Below, piece by piece: positions 3,139-8,331 of a stretch of DNA of 64,000 nt. A program made the translations under genes and the position numbers. Positions within the stretch are counted from its first letter, which is position 1. Every line of letters starts with the position of its first letter. Source of the DNA: an uncultured Candidatus Binatia bacterium (GTDB taxonomy: Bacteria > Desulfobacterota > Binatia > Bin18); NCBI GenBank assembly GCA_965214605.1, contig OZ243961.1, positions 704,001 through 768,000 on the forward strand, given 5' to 3'. The notes beneath the pieces are model-generated. The model searched no databases and had not been told where the DNA came from. It worked only from the letters and a program-made list of their open reading frames with translations.

Positions 3139-4386
3139 CTAGATAATTTTTCGCTCCTTGAGCCGTGCAATCTCGTCCGCTCCCAGTCCGAGTTGACCGG
3201 CGTATACCCCATCATTATGCTCACCGATCAGTGGGGCTCGCGGTCCGGTACGCCACTCGACCTCATCCGGCAGCATAGGAGCACCAACATAGGTCACGGT
3301 CTCATCCAGCTCGGGATGGTTCACCTCACAGAAAGTTTTGCGCGTTTGCCACTGCTCGTCGTCGACATTCTCCTCGGGGGTCCGAATCGGTGACCATGGA
3401 ATACCGAGCGACTGGGCCTCACGCCAGATCTCCTCCATCCCAAACGCCGCCACGCACCCGGCCTGCACCTCGGAGAAATGCTCGGCAAACACACGGCCAC
3501 GCCGATTCGCAGGATCCTGATACGGCTCGCTCTTCAGGTCAGCGGCCTGGCCCTTCCTATCCAGAAAATCGACCAGGGTCTCGTAGCCGCCCGGAAACGG
3601 GTTGGGCAGAATGATGGAATAGCGCCCGTCCTTGGTCGGAAACTGAACGGCTGGGCCAACGGCCGGTTGGGCGTGCCGACCCGTCTGGCGATAACACGTG
3701 GTCTGAGTATAAATCCAATTTGGGACGTCGATCTCGGTACACACACTGACCGCTTGGTGGACCGCGACTTCAATCATGTCCCCGTTCCCATGTGTTTCCC
3801 GACCGATCAGAGCACCGACAATAGCAATAAAAGTCTGGTTGCCAGTGATATGGTAGGCATGCCACATCTGAGGGGCGATAGGGGGAGTGTCATAGCTGCC
3901 CTCCTCCTTGGGATCATAGCCACAACACATCATCGGCCCGCCCAACGCCAGATGCACCAGATCGTTGGCCTTATAATCGCGCCACGGACCACTGCGGCCA
4001 AAAGGGGTCACACAGGCATAGATCAGGCGAGGGTTGAGCTGCTGGAGGGCGATCCAATCCAAGCCCAGCTTTTCCAAAGTGTCGAGCGGCAGGGCGTCGA
4101 GCAGAACGTCACACTCGGCGATGAGCTTTTTGAGTAGTTCGGTCCCCTCGGGTGCATGGATATCAAGCGTGATCCCACGCTTGCCAAAGTTGTAGTGCCA
4201 GAAATACAGACTCCGGTCAGGATTTTTCTCATCATGATAGAACGGCCCTAGGGAACGGGTCGAGTTTCCATCCGGAGGCTCAATCTTCAACACATCGGCC
4301 CCGGCCCCAGCCAGCAATTTCCCGCAAAACTCGCCCTTTTCATCGGCAAGCTCCAGGACTTTCACATCAAACAGGAATCCAGGCAT
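3139..4386 (-). CDS. Family III CoA-transferase (CaiB/BaiF), BbsE-like subunit
   Basis: GEFCGKLLAGAGADVLKIEPP, YNFGKRGITLD, APLIGEHN. Confidence 0.88.
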   Translation of the reverse strand: MPGFLFDVKVLELADEKGEFCGKLLAGAGADVLKIEPPDGNSTRSLGPFYHDEKNPDRSLYFWHYNFGKRGITLDIHAPEGTELLKKLIAECDVLLDALPLDTLEKLGLDWIALQQLNPRLIYACVTPFGRSGPWRDYKANDLVHLALGGPMMCCGYDPKEEGSYDTPPIAPQMWHAYHITGNQTFIAIVGALIGRETHGNGDMIEVAVHQAVSVCTEIDVPNWIYTQTTCYRQTGRHAQPAVGPAVQFPTKDGRYSIILPNPFPGGYETLVDFLDRKGQAADLKSEPYQDPANRRGRVFAEHFSEVQAGCVAAFGMEEIWREAQSLGIPWSPIRTPEENVDDEQWQTRKTFCEVNHPELDETVTYVGAPMLPDEVEWRTGPRAPLIGEHNDGVYAGQLGLGADEIARLKERKII

Positions 4387-6300: not shown

Positions 6301-7035
6301 CTAAAGGGATACTCTCCGCAGAGCTCGGGGGAATCCGTTTGCTTCTCCGTCCAGCGTACCGACCTCATTCACTCCGGCGGTATTGCTCTTCAAAATTCCC
6401 AAAGCCAACGTTTGTAGCATCTCGAGGTAATCCTCAACTTTGGCAAAACGCTTCAAGGCCCAATGACGCACCGCCCACGACTGAGCCAGAACGAGCAAAC
6501 AGTGCGCCTTAAGATCAATGTCGCCAGCCGGAAAAGCCTTTTTCTCCACTCCATAAGCAATAATTTCCTCAAGCAGACTCTGAATACGCTCTTCTCCCTC
6601 TAGCAGGCGTCTGCGTTCGGCACTGGTCAGAGACTTCATCTCTTGGTAGCCCAAGACCACATCGCGCCGCAGCTCATCGATGAGACGCACATAGCGTTCG
6701 TAGGCGAGCAGGAATAACTGCTTGGGAGCAACCCCTTTCTCTTTGAGCCGTTCATATTCTGCTCGCTGCTCACGCAGCATGACCTCAGTCCGTTCTTGAT
6801 TGTGGGAGAACAGGAAAAACAGAATCTCTTCTTTGCTGGTGAAGTAGTTAAAAACGGAGCCAACGCTCAGGTCCGCCTTCTTGGCAATCTCTCGGACGCT
6901 GGTATTGTGGTACCCGTTACTTAAAAAGAGAGCTGCCGCCCCAGAGGCAATCCGCTCTTTGCCTTCGAGCAGGCGTTTCTCGTCTGTAACCTGGGAGGTT
7001 TGTCTTCGCTTTTTGCGTAGAACTTGACCTTTCAC
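6301..7035 (-). CDS. TetR/AcrR family transcriptional regulator
   Basis: HTH GYHNTSVREIAKKADLSVGSVFNYFTSKEEIL; C-terminal WAVRHW; RBS AAAGGA. Confidence 0.9.
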   Translation of the reverse strand: MKGQVLRKKRRQTSQVTDEKRLLEGKERIASGAAALFLSNGYHNTSVREIAKKADLSVGSVFNYFTSKEEILFFLFSHNQERTEVMLREQRAEYERLKEKGVAPKQLFLLAYERYVRLIDELRRDVVLGYQEMKSLTSAERRRLLEGEERIQSLLEEIIAYGVEKKAFPAGDIDLKAHCLLVLAQSWAVRHWALKRFAKVEDYLEMLQTLALGILKSNTAGVNEVGTLDGEANGFPRALRRVSL

Positions 7036-7164
7036 CCGCGCGTTCCTTTCCGGCTGAACTAGGCATGTGCTGAGTGAGTGTTCATTTCAAAATTTCATAC
7101 GTCAGGCAAGCGTCTTTTGTCAAGAAGACATTGAGAGGGCAAGCGCCCCTCAGCTTATTGTTTA

Positions 7165-7379
7165 GCTGCCCCCCCCCTGCACGTAGCGCGCACGCGGCGG
7201 CGGACAGCGCCGCGGCGGGCTGCCAGGCTGCCCCCCCCCTGCACGTAGCGCGCACTGGAGGTTCAATCTATTTGAAAAGAAATTCCAGCTGCCCCCCCCT
7301 GCACGTAGCGCGCACTCTGTTCAAGGGGCTTCTTCAGCAGCGGCTGAGAGAAGTGTCTGCCCTTGCACGTAGCGCGCAA
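7165..7379. CRISPR. Orphan CRISPR-like mini-array: 3 near-perfect repeats plus 1 degenerate repeat
   Basis: GCTG(C8-9)TGCACGTAGCGCGCAC at 7165-7193, 7227-7255 and 7288-7315; degenerate copy at 7357-7379; unique spacers of 33 and 32 nt; no cas genes in the window and I do not recognise the repeat family. Confidence 0.55.
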
Positions 7380-8331
7380 TCTGTTCGTGGGTGGCAAACC
7401 AGACGCCCGGCTTGTTCTTCATGTACACGATCAGTTGCTCCAGCATCTGCATCCGAGAACGATGGCCAATGACCTGGGGATGGGTGACCAGCATATACAA
7501 CGTACCCTCTTCATACGCGCCGTCAAACTCGGCGGTCCAGATCGAATACACTTCGTCTGTGGTGCGTAAGCCCACATGCTGACTGGTCCAACTGAGCTGA
7601 AAATATGGCCAGTCATCCAGAATCCACTCAACCGGTAACTCGACCAACCCTGACTCTTGTCCGTCAGACATGAGGCTGTACGGACGATCATCCGCCATCA
7701 TACTGCTGTCGTACAAAAAGCCCATTTCTTTGACGATCTTGATCGTTGCCGGGGTCAGGTCCCAGGCCGCGGACCGAAAGCCAACCGGCCTCTTCCCCAC
7801 CGTTTGAATAAAAATATCCATTGCCTTTGCATACACCTCACGCTCTTGGTCTTCGGTCAGGCTCAGCGGGCTCTCATGGATATAGGAGTGAAAGCCAATC
7901 TCGTGCTGGGGGCGATCAATGATGGTCTGCACCGCCTCAGGGTGGAGTATCATAGACGCCGCGGGGATGAAGAACGTGGCTGGAATGGCGTGCTTGTCGA
8001 GCAGTTTCATGATACGCGGCAGCCCGGCCCGTGCCCCATACTCGCCACGCGACATATACGATGGACTGTGGTTGCCCTGAAAGCCGAGCCACACCGGCTC
8101 AGTGTCAAAGTCAAACGAGAGACTAACCGCCACTTTTGCGCCCCCAGGCCATTGTTTGGGAGTCAGGTCCTTGCCACTGCGGACGGTCCTCACATGGGCT
8201 TTCATCTCTTCAGGCGTCCACTGCCAGATCGGCTTGTCCTGCCCGGCCCTGAGGGCAGAGGCCGAACAGATAACACAGCTCACCAGTACACAAACGGTCT
8301 TTATCGTGTTCGGCCACAGGTTCGGCATCAC
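7321..8331 (-). CDS. Exported polysaccharide deacetylase (CE4, PuuE/PgdA-like)
   Basis: WPGGAKVAVSLSFDFD, HEIGFHSYIHE, GFRSAAW, YDSSMMADD, HPQVIG, WFATH; signal-peptide-like N-terminus. Confidence 0.88.
   Translation of the reverse strand: MMPNLWPNTIKTVCVLVSCVICSASALRAGQDKPIWQWTPEEMKAHVRTVRSGKDLTPKQWPGGAKVAVSLSFDFDTEPVWLGFQGNHSPSYMSRGEYGARAGLPRIMKLLDKHAIPATFFIPAASMILHPEAVQTIIDRPQHEIGFHSYIHESPLSLTEDQEREVYAKAMDIFIQTVGKRPVGFRSAAWDLTPATIKIVKEMGFLYDSSMMADDRPYSLMSDGQESGLVELPVEWILDDWPYFQLSWTSQHVGLRTTDEVYSIWTAEFDGAYEEGTLYMLVTHPQVIGHRSRMQMLEQLIVYMKNKPGVWFATHEQIARYVQGQTLLSAAAEEAP

Follow-up and report, generated by a model that had tools for sequence, protein, structure and literature searches.

A CRISPR-like array at the 3′ end of a deacetylase gene in a Binatia genome: probable ectopic integration by the resident type I-E machinery

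A polysaccharide deacetylase gene in an uncultured Candidatus Binatia bacterium carries at its 3′ end a small CRISPR-like array whose repeat is the end of the gene itself. Judging from sequence comparison, we put at roughly 85% the probability that the two outer of its three units were made ectopically by the Cas1e-Cas2e integrase of the resident type I-E system, whereas the innermost unit is irregular and may have another history. An initial annotation of this DNA, made from the letters alone, had proposed a natural neo-CRISPR; for the inserts S1 and S2 that reading is supported by unit geometry, by an empty site in relatives, by a complete type I-E operon and by sister loci in the same genome, but it fits S3 poorly, the inner unit having a period of 64 nt. 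The window referred to below is the whole stretch analysed, 64,000 nt of contig OZ243961.1, and the coordinates in Table 1 are positions in it unless they carry the prefix C1.

Anatomy of the array and the displaced gene end

Four copies of the 3′ end of the gene, the last of them diverged, alternate with inserts of 33, 32 and about 35–36 nt that are mutually unrelated (Table 1), and the 16-nt core of the repeat occurs four times in the window against an expectation of 0.03. Three repeats of 28–29 nt with a degenerate fourth copy in the last codons, a GC-rich 33-nt and a GC-poor 32-nt spacer, and a decay that runs from identical outer copies to a diverged inner one had all been described before, and all were recovered here. 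The polarity is visible both in the C run, which has nine Cs in copies 1 and 2 and eight in copy 3, and in a strain in which position 7163 is joined directly to 7287 (see below). On the plus strand, which is the orientation of the repeat's best match to the type I-E repeat, the leader side falls to the left, where growth occurred. The C8 and C9 calls are homopolymer lengths, and both lengths are present at copy 3 in sequencing run X4, where a variant with one extra C has a depth of 27 and the pieces without it depths of 46–65; the C9 of copy 1 is confirmed by contig pieces from runs X1 and X4, and copy 2 is bridged by X4 record 5, which spans 7164–7299 with zero differences.

Table 1. Coordinates of the array, its surroundings and the resident type I-E array.
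Feature	Position	Strand	Description
TetR-family regulator gene	6301..7035	-	Syntenic neighbour defining the empty site
Left flank (pseudo-leader)	7100..7164	+	Intergenic, between the TetR gene and the deacetylase gene
Terminator-like hairpin	7132..7152	-	7 pairs, 4 of them G-C; T-rich tail
Old last codons and stop remnant	7155..7164	-	…AAA CAA TAA in the C8 frame
Copy 1	7165..7193	+	29 nt, C9; outermost, leader-proximal pseudo-repeat
S1	7194..7226	+	33-nt insert, GC 0.88
Copy 2	7227..7255	+	29 nt, C9; identical to copy 1
S2	7256..7287	+	32-nt insert, GC 0.31
Copy 3	7288..7315	+	28 nt, C8
S3	7316..7351	+	Irregular inner insert, about 36 nt
Copy 4	7352..7379	+	Gene-proximal, diverged; 21/28 identical to copy 3; encodes IARYVQGQT
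Polysaccharide deacetylase gene	7321..8331	-	Open reading frame; PF01522, E 1.8e-14
Resident type I-E array	C1:2301764-2307667		97 repeats of 28 nt; 94 of 96 spacers 33 nt, one 32 nt

The gene now stops inside the third insert, as had been recognised from the letters: its stop, a TGA on the complement of 7321–7323, lies in S3, which thereby encodes the deacetylase tail LLSAAAEEAP. Copy 1 and the left flank together align with the single copy found in relatives and are the original 3′ end of the gene. When this outer copy is read with nine Cs, it gives GGGS followed directly by TAA, which had been taken for the original ending; with eight Cs it gives ARYVQGGAAKQ and a TAA on the complement of 7155–7157. 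The first reading does exist in the present sequence, but the second fits the relatives better, and because it is collinear, stop position included, with relatives ending in IARYVQEQAAEQ before the stop, the C8 frame is by alignment the likelier original gene end. The remnant of the old end is collinear with the ending EQAAEQ of relatives and with tails found family-wide. Further to the left, the terminator-like hairpin, now some 170 nt past the present stop, is probably the gene's original terminator.

The repeat belongs to this place alone. A search of the whole 4.37-Mb genome with the 29-mer (up to five mismatches) and a 17-nt core (up to two) returned only this locus, save one 17-mer, and since the core is absent elsewhere the repeat is not a dispersed REP family, a possibility that had been raised at the outset. 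The lone off-locus 17-mer, at C1:538928, has two mismatches and is unrelated. Two 15-nt cores spaced 25–50 nt apart were found nowhere in public genome and metagenome contigs, a search from which records close to the genome itself were possibly excluded.

The empty site and variation between strains

An empty site in close relatives had been predicted, and five relatives of the same genus do carry a single copy without an insert. In the alignment to that one copy, the flank is matched to 7192 in two of them and to about 7130 in three, and the gene, including copy 4, from 7357 on. The repeat is a conserved gene end, coding for IARYVQ in 68 relatives, and no second copy was found among the 68 3′ ends examined.

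Variable spacer number, likewise anticipated, is seen in record 16 of run X6, whose contig joins 7163 to 7287 and so skips 123 nt that correspond exactly to two units, namely copy 1, S1, copy 2 and S2, while S3 and copy 4 are kept (records 16 and 17). Because a few other bases also differ, the allele belongs to another strain; instead of preserving the ancestral state, it could have arisen by a deletion between repeats. The X6 strain also has S3, which the species-level relatives of the same genus lack, and on this distribution S3 is older than S1 and S2. Protein-based searches for strain-level relatives gave 76 metagenome loci (best identity 81%) and 80 genome loci (best 86%), among which none was close enough to offer further alleles.

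A resident type I-E system and its sister loci

About 1.6 Mb away in the same genome lies a complete type I-E cas operon, with open frames for cas3, cse1, cse2, cas7, cas5, cas6e, cas1e and cas2e beside the array listed in Table 1. All genes of the operon exceed their NCBIfam cut-offs save for the full-length Cas3 model, with Cas1e scoring 291.9 bits (cut-off 215.6) and Cas2e 82.4 bits (cut-off 33.15). The operon answers a suggestion of the initial annotation, that a type I-E system and its repeat be sought elsewhere in the genome, and its remark that the window holds no cas gene agrees with the absence of any cas1 or cas2 match from the 64 kb, several cas loci being located elsewhere. The geometry of the outer units, a 28/29-nt repeat with a 33/32-nt insert, is that of the resident type I-E array, the last two repeats of which are diverged. 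The other arrays have repeats of 36–38 nt, and the genome also contains a type II Cas1, associated with 36-nt repeats at a 66-nt period, and modules resembling type I-D.

The deacetylase locus does not stand alone. A genome-wide scan for duplications at fixed offsets yielded seven loci at an offset of 61, one at 60 and the deacetylase locus at 62, against a mean of 0.625 loci and a maximum of 5 for 88 other offsets. Each of the eight sister loci has its own private duplicated block of 27–31 nt and an insert of 30–33 nt, and five of the eight inserts duplicate sequence from elsewhere in the genome, exactly or with a single mismatch. Direct comparison with the protospacer context resolves four of these five self-derived units as 28+33, and the fifth (at 1399850) is 28+33 as measured. 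Relatives show empty sites for three of the eight, and the loci at 125255, 500125, 1399850, 2694922 and 3921607 lie in DNA to which nothing in the five searched relatives could be aligned. At one sister site, a genome of a second species that also has Cas1e (G007) carries a different insert, which is an independent second integration; both genomes filled at this hot spot have Cas1e, and three of the four empty ones lack it. Another open frame appears to be interrupted by ectopic integration.

Taken together, the nine duplicated blocks share on average 13.1 of 28 positions with the type I-E repeat, more than random 28-mers do (null 9.5 ± 2.0); none of 50,000 resamples reached the observed mean. 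The scan gave secondary excesses at offsets 73 and 77, the loci at 73 having duplications of 37–42 nt and self-derived inserts of 33–36 nt. The periods of the I-D-like array include both 73 and 77, and 77 also falls within the 76–84 range of the array with 37-nt repeats, but no ectopic locus sits at the commonest array periods, 74 and 75.

Likeness to the type I-E repeat: working array or scar

The likeness to the type I-E repeat reaches significance when the nine loci are taken together, but for the deacetylase site alone it is modest. In exact register, copy 3 agrees with the resident repeat at 13 of 28 positions (P 0.016, one strand), and seven of its first nine positions match (P 0.0015); an A stands at −1, as it does in the resident leader. 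The resemblance to a type I-E leader-repeat junction noted in the initial annotation is modest, consisting of that A and those seven bases. On either strand, shuffled versions of the locus repeat fold as well as the repeat itself (z −0.20 and +0.18), and it has no type I-E palindrome; for the resident repeat the same analysis predicts a stem of six pairs with a 4-nt loop. No sigma-70-like promoter was found in 6950–7450. The Rfam CRISPR-DR models did not match in 6900–7600, a blank that carries no weight since the genuine type I-E repeat goes unmatched as well. With neither a repeat hairpin nor a promoter-like site, the locus is probably a non-functional integration scar or a proto-array rather than a working CRISPR, and Cas6e processing and interference there are unlikely.

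The irregular inner unit

The innermost unit had been presumed to share the clean 28+33 geometry, and it does not: its period is 64 nt and its insert about 36 nt. Moreover, the similarity between copies 3 and 4 extends to the right of the 28-mer for seven bases, or for 10 of 12 (TCTGTTC..GGG), such that the first seven bases of S3 (10 of its first 12) are those of the gene sequence that follows copy 4, a coincidence with a position-specific chance probability of about 3.5e-5 by our own arithmetic.

Two accounts of this unit can be considered. The odds seem to us about even that it arose by a different process and that the outer copy became a type I-E substrate only later; candidates for that process are a template switch, a duplication of some 38–40 nt with 24–26 nt of filler, or another adaptation module with longer repeats. 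When both flanks are counted, copies 3 and 4 are similar over about 38 nt at about 82%, and the genome does possess the type II Cas1 and the I-D-like modules, as well as the loci at offset 73 with their longer duplications and self-derived inserts. The period of 64 nt, however, is exactly that of no resident array; local alignment of S3 with both flanks, S1 and S2 gave nothing significant, whereas similarity to its neighbours is what would betray a template switch or a tandem duplication; and the boundaries of the duplication cannot be fixed.

It is possible, if rather doubtful, that all three units, S3 included, are type I-E ectopic integrations and that the inner one has merely aged, through a gain of 3 nt, substitutions and a C tract created after the first event. 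S3 does predate S1 and S2, terminal repeats of real arrays do decay (the resident one has two diverged repeats at its end and a single 32-nt spacer), and copy 4 agrees with the relatives where copies 1–3 have the C run. Yet seven differences in 28 nt is a high count for an event more recent than the divergence from relatives that retain about 86% gene identity, a plain 28-nt duplication leaves unexplained why S3 begins with the bases found after copy 4, and the sister events whose boundaries can be checked against a protospacer resolve to 28+33.

Origin of the inserts

None of S1, S2 and S3 has a second copy in its own genome. The recommended search of phage, plasmid and self sequences yielded no source for S1 or S2. 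For S2, no credible match was found in phages, plasmids, its own genome or 400 other genomes of the same class, the best hits to phages and plasmids being at chance level (E 0.08 and 0.7). S1 matches hundreds of GC-rich replicons at 81–86%, which is generic and uninformative, and a match of S3 to an Enterococcus phage portal gene (27/29, E 1e-3) was judged to be chance. The search of the class covered 401 genomes, its own included, of which three are unpublished and are the subject of no claim here; among the hits listed from outside its own genome, S1 accounted for nearly all, through short partial matches, while copy 3 and S3 drew a few short hits and S2 none.

Some contigs from the sequencing runs resemble parts of the locus. 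Contigs in X1, X4 and X5 are similar to 7195–7231 (5 mismatches in 37) in a sequence that is absent from the assembly and is probably GC-rich DNA of a generic kind. Another similarity, to 7313–7346 (4 mismatches in 34, or 30/34), occurs in X1 and X4 contigs, again in a sequence absent from the assembly, and is a possible lead.

A model for the locus and its competitors

We envision that the last 28 bases of the gene, together with the intergenic DNA to their left, would be used as a pseudo leader-repeat junction, at which a prespacer some 33 nt long would be joined to staggered nicks 28 nt apart; repair of the gaps would then duplicate the 28-mer. In such a scheme the junction is remade beside the left flank at each insertion, so the site can be hit again and the array grows leftward. 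As for the order of events, an older, irregular duplication-insertion would first have brought in S3 and replaced the last residues of the protein; S2 would have been inserted next; the C tract of the outermost copy would then have slipped from C8 to C9; and S1, presumably the newest insert, would have come last. That Cas1e-Cas2e was the agent is likewise suggested by the comparisons above.

Several observations weigh against the integrase. No protospacer was found for S1, S2 or S3; no common flanking motif or PAM emerges across the seven protospacer contexts in the genome; the inner unit misfits the 28+33 scheme; and the 28-mer resembles the type I-E repeat only modestly overall and lacks its palindrome. 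One might imagine a fragment-capture or repair process without Cas proteins, for which the agreement with the type I-E array would be coincidental. That no PAM is visible and that the target is only partly like the repeat would suit such a process, but it would have to account for the sharp excess at 61, the very period of the resident type I-E array, for the enrichment of type I-E repeat likeness among the targets, and for the distribution of Cas1e at the twice-filled hot spot; we consider it very improbable, and the fragment-capture system that the initial annotation had kept in reserve is not needed. That the locus is a horizontally acquired orphan array, a dispersed repeat abutting the gene or a poly-C assembly artefact is scarcely credible. 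Homopolymer length does vary in one run, and the assembly is probably built from metagenomic data. Against these readings, the array is made of the conserved 3′ end of the gene, the site is empty in relatives, the repeat was detected neither at another place in the genome nor as an array in two public collections, and contigs of two further runs cover the junctions (an X1 contig spans 6900–7700 without differences, and X4 and X5 pieces cover the junctions too). Ectopic integration by Cas1e-Cas2e accordingly remains our preferred reading of the outer units.

Broader implications

We lean, by a small measure, towards a wider proposition, namely that insertion by CRISPR adaptation modules all over the chromosome is a natural process still under way in this lineage. 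If so, at least two integrases, the type I-E one and a module that makes 37–40-nt duplications, have left about a dozen single-unit scars, many of which hold spacers from the cell's own DNA; one pseudo-repeat has been hit independently in two species; and the deacetylase end is a re-used, strain-variable, living proto-array, a de novo birth of CRISPR. Ectopic integration would then be a mutational force that rewrites gene ends and apparently interrupts at least one gene.

The origin of new CRISPR arrays is an open question, and natural evidence for off-target integration has been only circumstantial according to papers that cite the experimental work. The present genome offers a natural, internally controlled set: a type I-E system, nine ectopic sites of its exact geometry, self-protospacers and empty sites, as well as a hot spot hit twice in evolution and a multi-unit site that differs between strains. 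With such a set it can be tested what features of its sequence allow a non-CRISPR site to capture an integrase, how frequently the host genome is damaged by adaptation (in the present case one C-terminus has been replaced) and whether a pseudo-array is able to mature into a functional one. A scan for duplications at the genome's own repeat-plus-spacer period is a way to detect such scars.

Comparison with known systems

The locus shares with a canonical type I-E array the 28-nt repeat, the 33-nt spacers and polar growth beside one flank. It departs from one in that its repeat is coding, is devoid of a palindrome or hairpin and matches the resident repeat at only 13 of 28 positions, and in that neither a cas gene nor a promoter-like site is adjacent.

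Ectopic acquisition inside arrays is known for type II-A (McGinn and Marraffini, as described in bioRxiv 10.1101/2022.05.19.492656), where, as here, an integrase acts at a site other than the first repeat; by that description, however, the II-A events stay within a true array and use true repeats, which the deacetylase site does not. Orphan arrays, like the deacetylase locus, lie far from cas genes (PMC13142298), and off-target acquisition is one of three origins proposed for isolated arrays (Shmakov et al., CRISPR J 2020, as cited in PMC13142298). For the deacetylase locus, an in-place origin is shown by the empty site of its relatives and by the identity of the repeat with the gene end.

The nearest precedent is the neo-CRISPR formed by off-target integration with the E. 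coli type I-E Cas1-Cas2 (Nivala, Shipman and Church, Nat Microbiol 2018), reported as laboratory events under over-produced Cas1-Cas2; a preprint that cites this work calls its evidence for two other species only circumstantial. Common to that account and to ours are an ectopic insert of spacer size, a target duplication of repeat length and the new repeat-spacer-repeat unit that results, and a type I-E adaptation module is present in both. The present case differs from the reported one in being natural, in an uncultured lineage and with at least nine events in one genome, and in its re-used site of two or three units, which varies between strains and has remodelled the 3′ end of a gene.

Repeated gene end next to a TetR-family gene

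The initial annotation had described three repeats separated by unrelated inserts and a fourth, degenerate copy within the end of a polysaccharide deacetylase gene, and this arrangement is borne out: the 16-nt core of the repeat has four occurrences in the window, where shuffles predict 0.03, and copies 1 to 4 (outermost on the left to gene-proximal on the right) enclose the inserts S1, S2 and S3. The deacetylase frame, whose C-terminal sequence is ...HEQIARYVQGQTLLSAAAEEAP*, now stops within the third insert, as had also been proposed. Neither the repeat nor the inserts have a second copy outside the locus in the 4.37-Mb genome, which rules out a REP-like family as the identity of the repeat. 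The neighbouring TetR-family gene contains a 28-nt direct repeat of its own (6583-6610 and 6949-6976, 82% identical, 366 nt apart), which encodes a repeated peptide (...RLLEGEERI... and ...RLLEGKERI...).

Features of the deacetylase-end locus and related loci on contig C1 of the genome under study (G000); L105-L111 are extracted stretches of C1
Feature	Position	Strand	Description
Copy 1 (outermost)	7165-7193	+	29 nt: GCTG, C9, then TGCACGTAGCGCGCAC
S1	7194-7226		33 nt, GC 0.88
Copy 2	7227-7255	+	29 nt, C9; identical to copy 1
S2	7256-7287		32 nt, GC 0.31
Copy 3	7288-7315	+	28 nt; copy 1 sequence but C8
S3	7316-7351		about 36 nt
Copy 4	ending 7379	+	diverged copy
Polysaccharide deacetylase ORF	7321-8331	-	PF01522, E 1.8e-14
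TetR-family gene	6301-7035		deacetylase neighbour
Sister locus	L105:601-689		C1:91695-91783
Sister locus	L106:601-690
Sister locus	L107:601-692
Sister locus	L108:601-689
Two sister loci	L109:604-690, 3473-3562
Sister locus	L110:608-697
Sister locus	L111:604-695
Second-class loci, offset 73	C1:1880825, 1967741, 2103852, 3068857, 3085507
Second-class loci, offset 77	C1:1803272, 2197072, 2206321, 1692730

Original gene end and empty sites

The TetR–deacetylase gene pair is also present in same-genus genomes, and there the predicted empty site is found. In G006 and G007, the TetR-side flank (to window position 7192) and the gene (from 7357) align to one single copy; in G003, G004 and G005, the flank alignment reaches about 7130 and the gene again aligns from 7357. 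None of the 68 relatives with a readable deacetylase 3′ end (57 metagenome and 11 genome loci) shows the gene end a second time within 500 nt. Their proteins terminate in IARYVQEQAAEQ* or somewhat longer tails, with five to eight residues usual after YVQ. Read with C8, the outermost copy and the left flank give ARYVQGGAAKQ*, with the stop (TAA on the complement of 7155-7157) in the same position as in relatives and a terminator-like hairpin downstream (minus strand, 7152-7132). The position of this stop and the hairpin that follows it argue that the outermost copy is the gene’s original end, as first suggested, in the C8 frame; the GGGS* ending first read there depends on the extra C and is the less likely one. 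The repeat copies themselves were made in place.

Resident CRISPR-Cas systems

Eight Cas1-family and seven Cas2-family matches and several arrays are present in the genome; all of these matches lie outside the window, in which, as had been noted, no such match was found. A type I-E array (C1:2301764-2307667) contains 97 repeats of 28 nt, with spacers of 33 nt in 94 of 96 cases and of 32 nt in one, and is adjoined by open frames for Cas3, Cse1, Cse2, Cas7, Cas5, Cas6e, Cas1e and Cas2e that exceed NCBIfam cut-offs, save for the full-length Cas3 model. A search for type I-E cas1/cas2 elsewhere in the genome, which the initial annotation had advised, thus succeeds. The other arrays have 36-38-nt repeats and go with Cas1 proteins classified as I-D-like, generic and type II, so that among the resident modules only I-E fits the 28/29 + 33/32 geometry of the outer units (copy 1-S1 and copy 2-S2).

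Aligned without shift on the plus strand, copy 3 and the I-E repeat share 13 of 28 positions (one-strand P for a random 28-mer, 0.016) and 7 of the first 9 (P 0.0015), and the base preceding the repeat is A both at the resident leader junction and at the junction with the left flank, the pseudo-leader. The plus-strand match places the leader side on the left, consistent with the probable direction of growth.

The I-E array has further peculiarities. Spacers 51 and 94 match the organism’s own chromosome at 33/33 (C1:3170433-3170465 and 3218149-3218181), spacer 32 has a 26/27 match to C1:1689177-1689203, inside another CRISPR array of the genome, and spacers 63 and 74 are identical. A mini-array of five repeats (C1:2534815-2535083) carries the I-E repeat in two variants and is preceded by TAGTCCTCGGAGAGGGCCGTCGG..., which also follows the last repeat of the main array; given this shared flank, the two may be parts of one array split by rearrangement. 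About 91 kb upstream of the window, a weak Cas1-like frame (C1:611758-612813; 55.5 bits to the generic cas1 model, cut-off 71.7) lies beside a short repeat cluster with a 77-nt period that begins at C1:612872, and together they may be a degenerate or unusual CRISPR locus.

Sister loci across the genome

A scan of contig C1, with known arrays masked, looked for 28-nt windows in which 26 or more positions are matched at a fixed downstream distance, the duplicated run being required to be at least 15 nt shorter than that distance. Seven loci were found at distance 61, one at 60 and the deacetylase locus at 62, against a background of mean 0.625 and maximum 5 at the 88 other distances between 40 and 130. 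At every one of the eight sister loci, a block of 27-31 nt peculiar to that locus is duplicated and an unrelated sequence of 30-33 nt is inserted. For five of the eight, the insert is copied, exactly or with one mismatch, from another place in the same genome, one source being the leader of the I-E array; four of these five units resolve, when compared with the source, to a 28-nt duplication and a 33-nt insert, and the fifth (1399850) is 28 + 33 as measured. When the register was kept within the duplicated block, the nine targets shared on average 13.1 of 28 positions with the I-E repeat, versus 9.5 ± 2.0 at random places; in 50,000 resamples of nine, that mean was never reached.

Relatives provide empty sites here as well. 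Compared with same-genus genomes, the insertions at C1:4089123 and C1:2692053 are clean (61 and 60 nt, respectively); at C1:91695 relatives have one copy, and two alignment gaps, of 24 and 32 nt, make them 56 nt shorter. At 2692053, G007 has the same target duplicated with a different insert while G003-G006 are empty, which makes it a recurrent hot spot, hit independently in G000 and G007. Cas1e is present in G000, G001, G005 and G007 and was not found in G002, G003, G004 or G006.

The 61-nt unit at C1:91695-91783 sits within a region that is a single 570-codon open frame in G006, the G000 counterpart of which consists of shorter frames ending just after the unit; ectopic integration may have interrupted a gene there. 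A second class of loci has duplications of 24-42 nt and inserts of 31-50 nt, with offsets (73 and 77) that are among the periods of the genome’s long-repeat arrays but not their commonest. Three of nine inserts examined, all at offset 73, have 100% matches elsewhere in the assembly, the small contigs C4 and C5 among them, so that another adaptation module, too, may integrate ectopically.

Outer units as probable products of an integrase

Duplication of a 28-nt target, together with insertion of 33 nt copied from distant DNA at sites similar to the I-E repeat, is the behaviour of a Cas1-Cas2 integrase, and we know of no other process with this signature. We therefore consider it very probable (roughly 0.85) that the two outer units are a natural neo-CRISPR. 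The proposal had covered the whole locus; it is supported for both outer units. The inner unit (copy 3, S3 and copy 4), whose 64-nt period does not fit the geometry, may have another origin.

Strain variation

Independent sequencing runs contain matching contigs. In X1, which may be the source of the assembly, one contig spans 6900-7700 with 0 differences, and in X4, from another sample of the same organism, one piece covers 7164-7299 with 0 differences; copies 1 and 2 are C9 in both. At the C run of copy 3 (7292-7299), X4 has C8 pieces at depth 46-65 plus C9 at depth 27, and this homopolymer is thus either slippage-prone or error-prone. X5, which belongs to another study, extends from the left flank through copy 1 into the first part of S1.

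A 143-nt contig of X6, a run from a third study, passes directly from 7163 to 7287 and so omits 123 nt, with 3 and 4 other base differences on its two sides, and a second contig covers 7316-7401 with one difference. The related strain thus reads left flank, one copy (C8), S3, copy 4 and gene, and is without exactly copy 1, S1, copy 2 and S2. This allele is either the state preceding the gain of S2 and S1 or a deletion between repeats; under both readings the locus varies by whole units, and the variable unit number that had been predicted is therefore seen. The species-level relatives have no S3, the C run is C9 in copies 1 and 2 and mostly C8 in copy 3, and these facts, together with the X6 allele, are most simply read as gain in the order S3, S2, S1, with growth at the left flank.

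The irregular inner unit

Copies 3 and 4 are identical at 21 of 28 positions. The seven bases that follow copy 3 (TCTGTTC) repeat those after copy 4, an agreement whose position-specific chance we calculate at about 3.5e-5 and which becomes 10 of 12 with ..GGG; left of the core, copy 4 agrees with relatives where copies 1-3 carry the C run. Since the agreement thus runs beyond the 28-mer, one possibility is a first duplication of about 38-40 nt and a filler of 24-26 nt; another is that 28 nt were duplicated in a different register and that the insert was 36 nt long. In local alignments there was no sign that S3 was copied from neighbouring sequence. Candidate origins for the inner unit are an ancient I-E insertion that has since decayed, the action of a different adaptation module and a repair process. 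The C run, and with it the likeness to the start of the I-E repeat, would have been gained by the outer copy after this event.

Effect on the gene

On neither strand does the pseudo-repeat fold better than its shuffles, while the resident I-E repeat is predicted by the same analysis to form a 6-pair stem with a 4-nt loop, and no promoter-like site was found in 6950-7450. Most likely, on these predictions, the locus does not work as an array but is a scar that integration can use again. What it is known to affect is the gene: the deacetylase has an insert-encoded tail in place of its last residues, and, judging from the position of the old terminator-like hairpin, the mRNA would have to extend about 170 nt further to reach it.

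Insert sources and comparison with known systems

The advised comparison of the inserts with phage, plasmid and self sequences gave no source for S1, S2 or S3 in the organism’s own genome, 50,697 phage records, 72,556 plasmid records or 400 other same-class genomes. S1 resembles generic GC-rich DNA, and a contig in X1 and X4, absent from the assembly, matches 7313-7346 at 30 of 34 positions. No shared PAM was found across the seven available protospacer contexts.

Off-target acquisition is one proposed origin of isolated arrays (Shmakov et al. 2020, as cited elsewhere), and a paper citing Nivala et al. 2018 calls the evidence for species beyond E. coli circumstantial. The limited collection of literature searched yielded no natural multi-unit cases with empty sites. 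The sister events across the genome make the finding considerably more informative than the deacetylase locus alone. This locus is a natural example of something known from laboratory work: the ectopic integration that spawned new arrays in E. coli, which citing papers credit to Nivala et al. 2018, occurred with over-produced Cas1-Cas2, whereas the deacetylase-end locus arose in nature.
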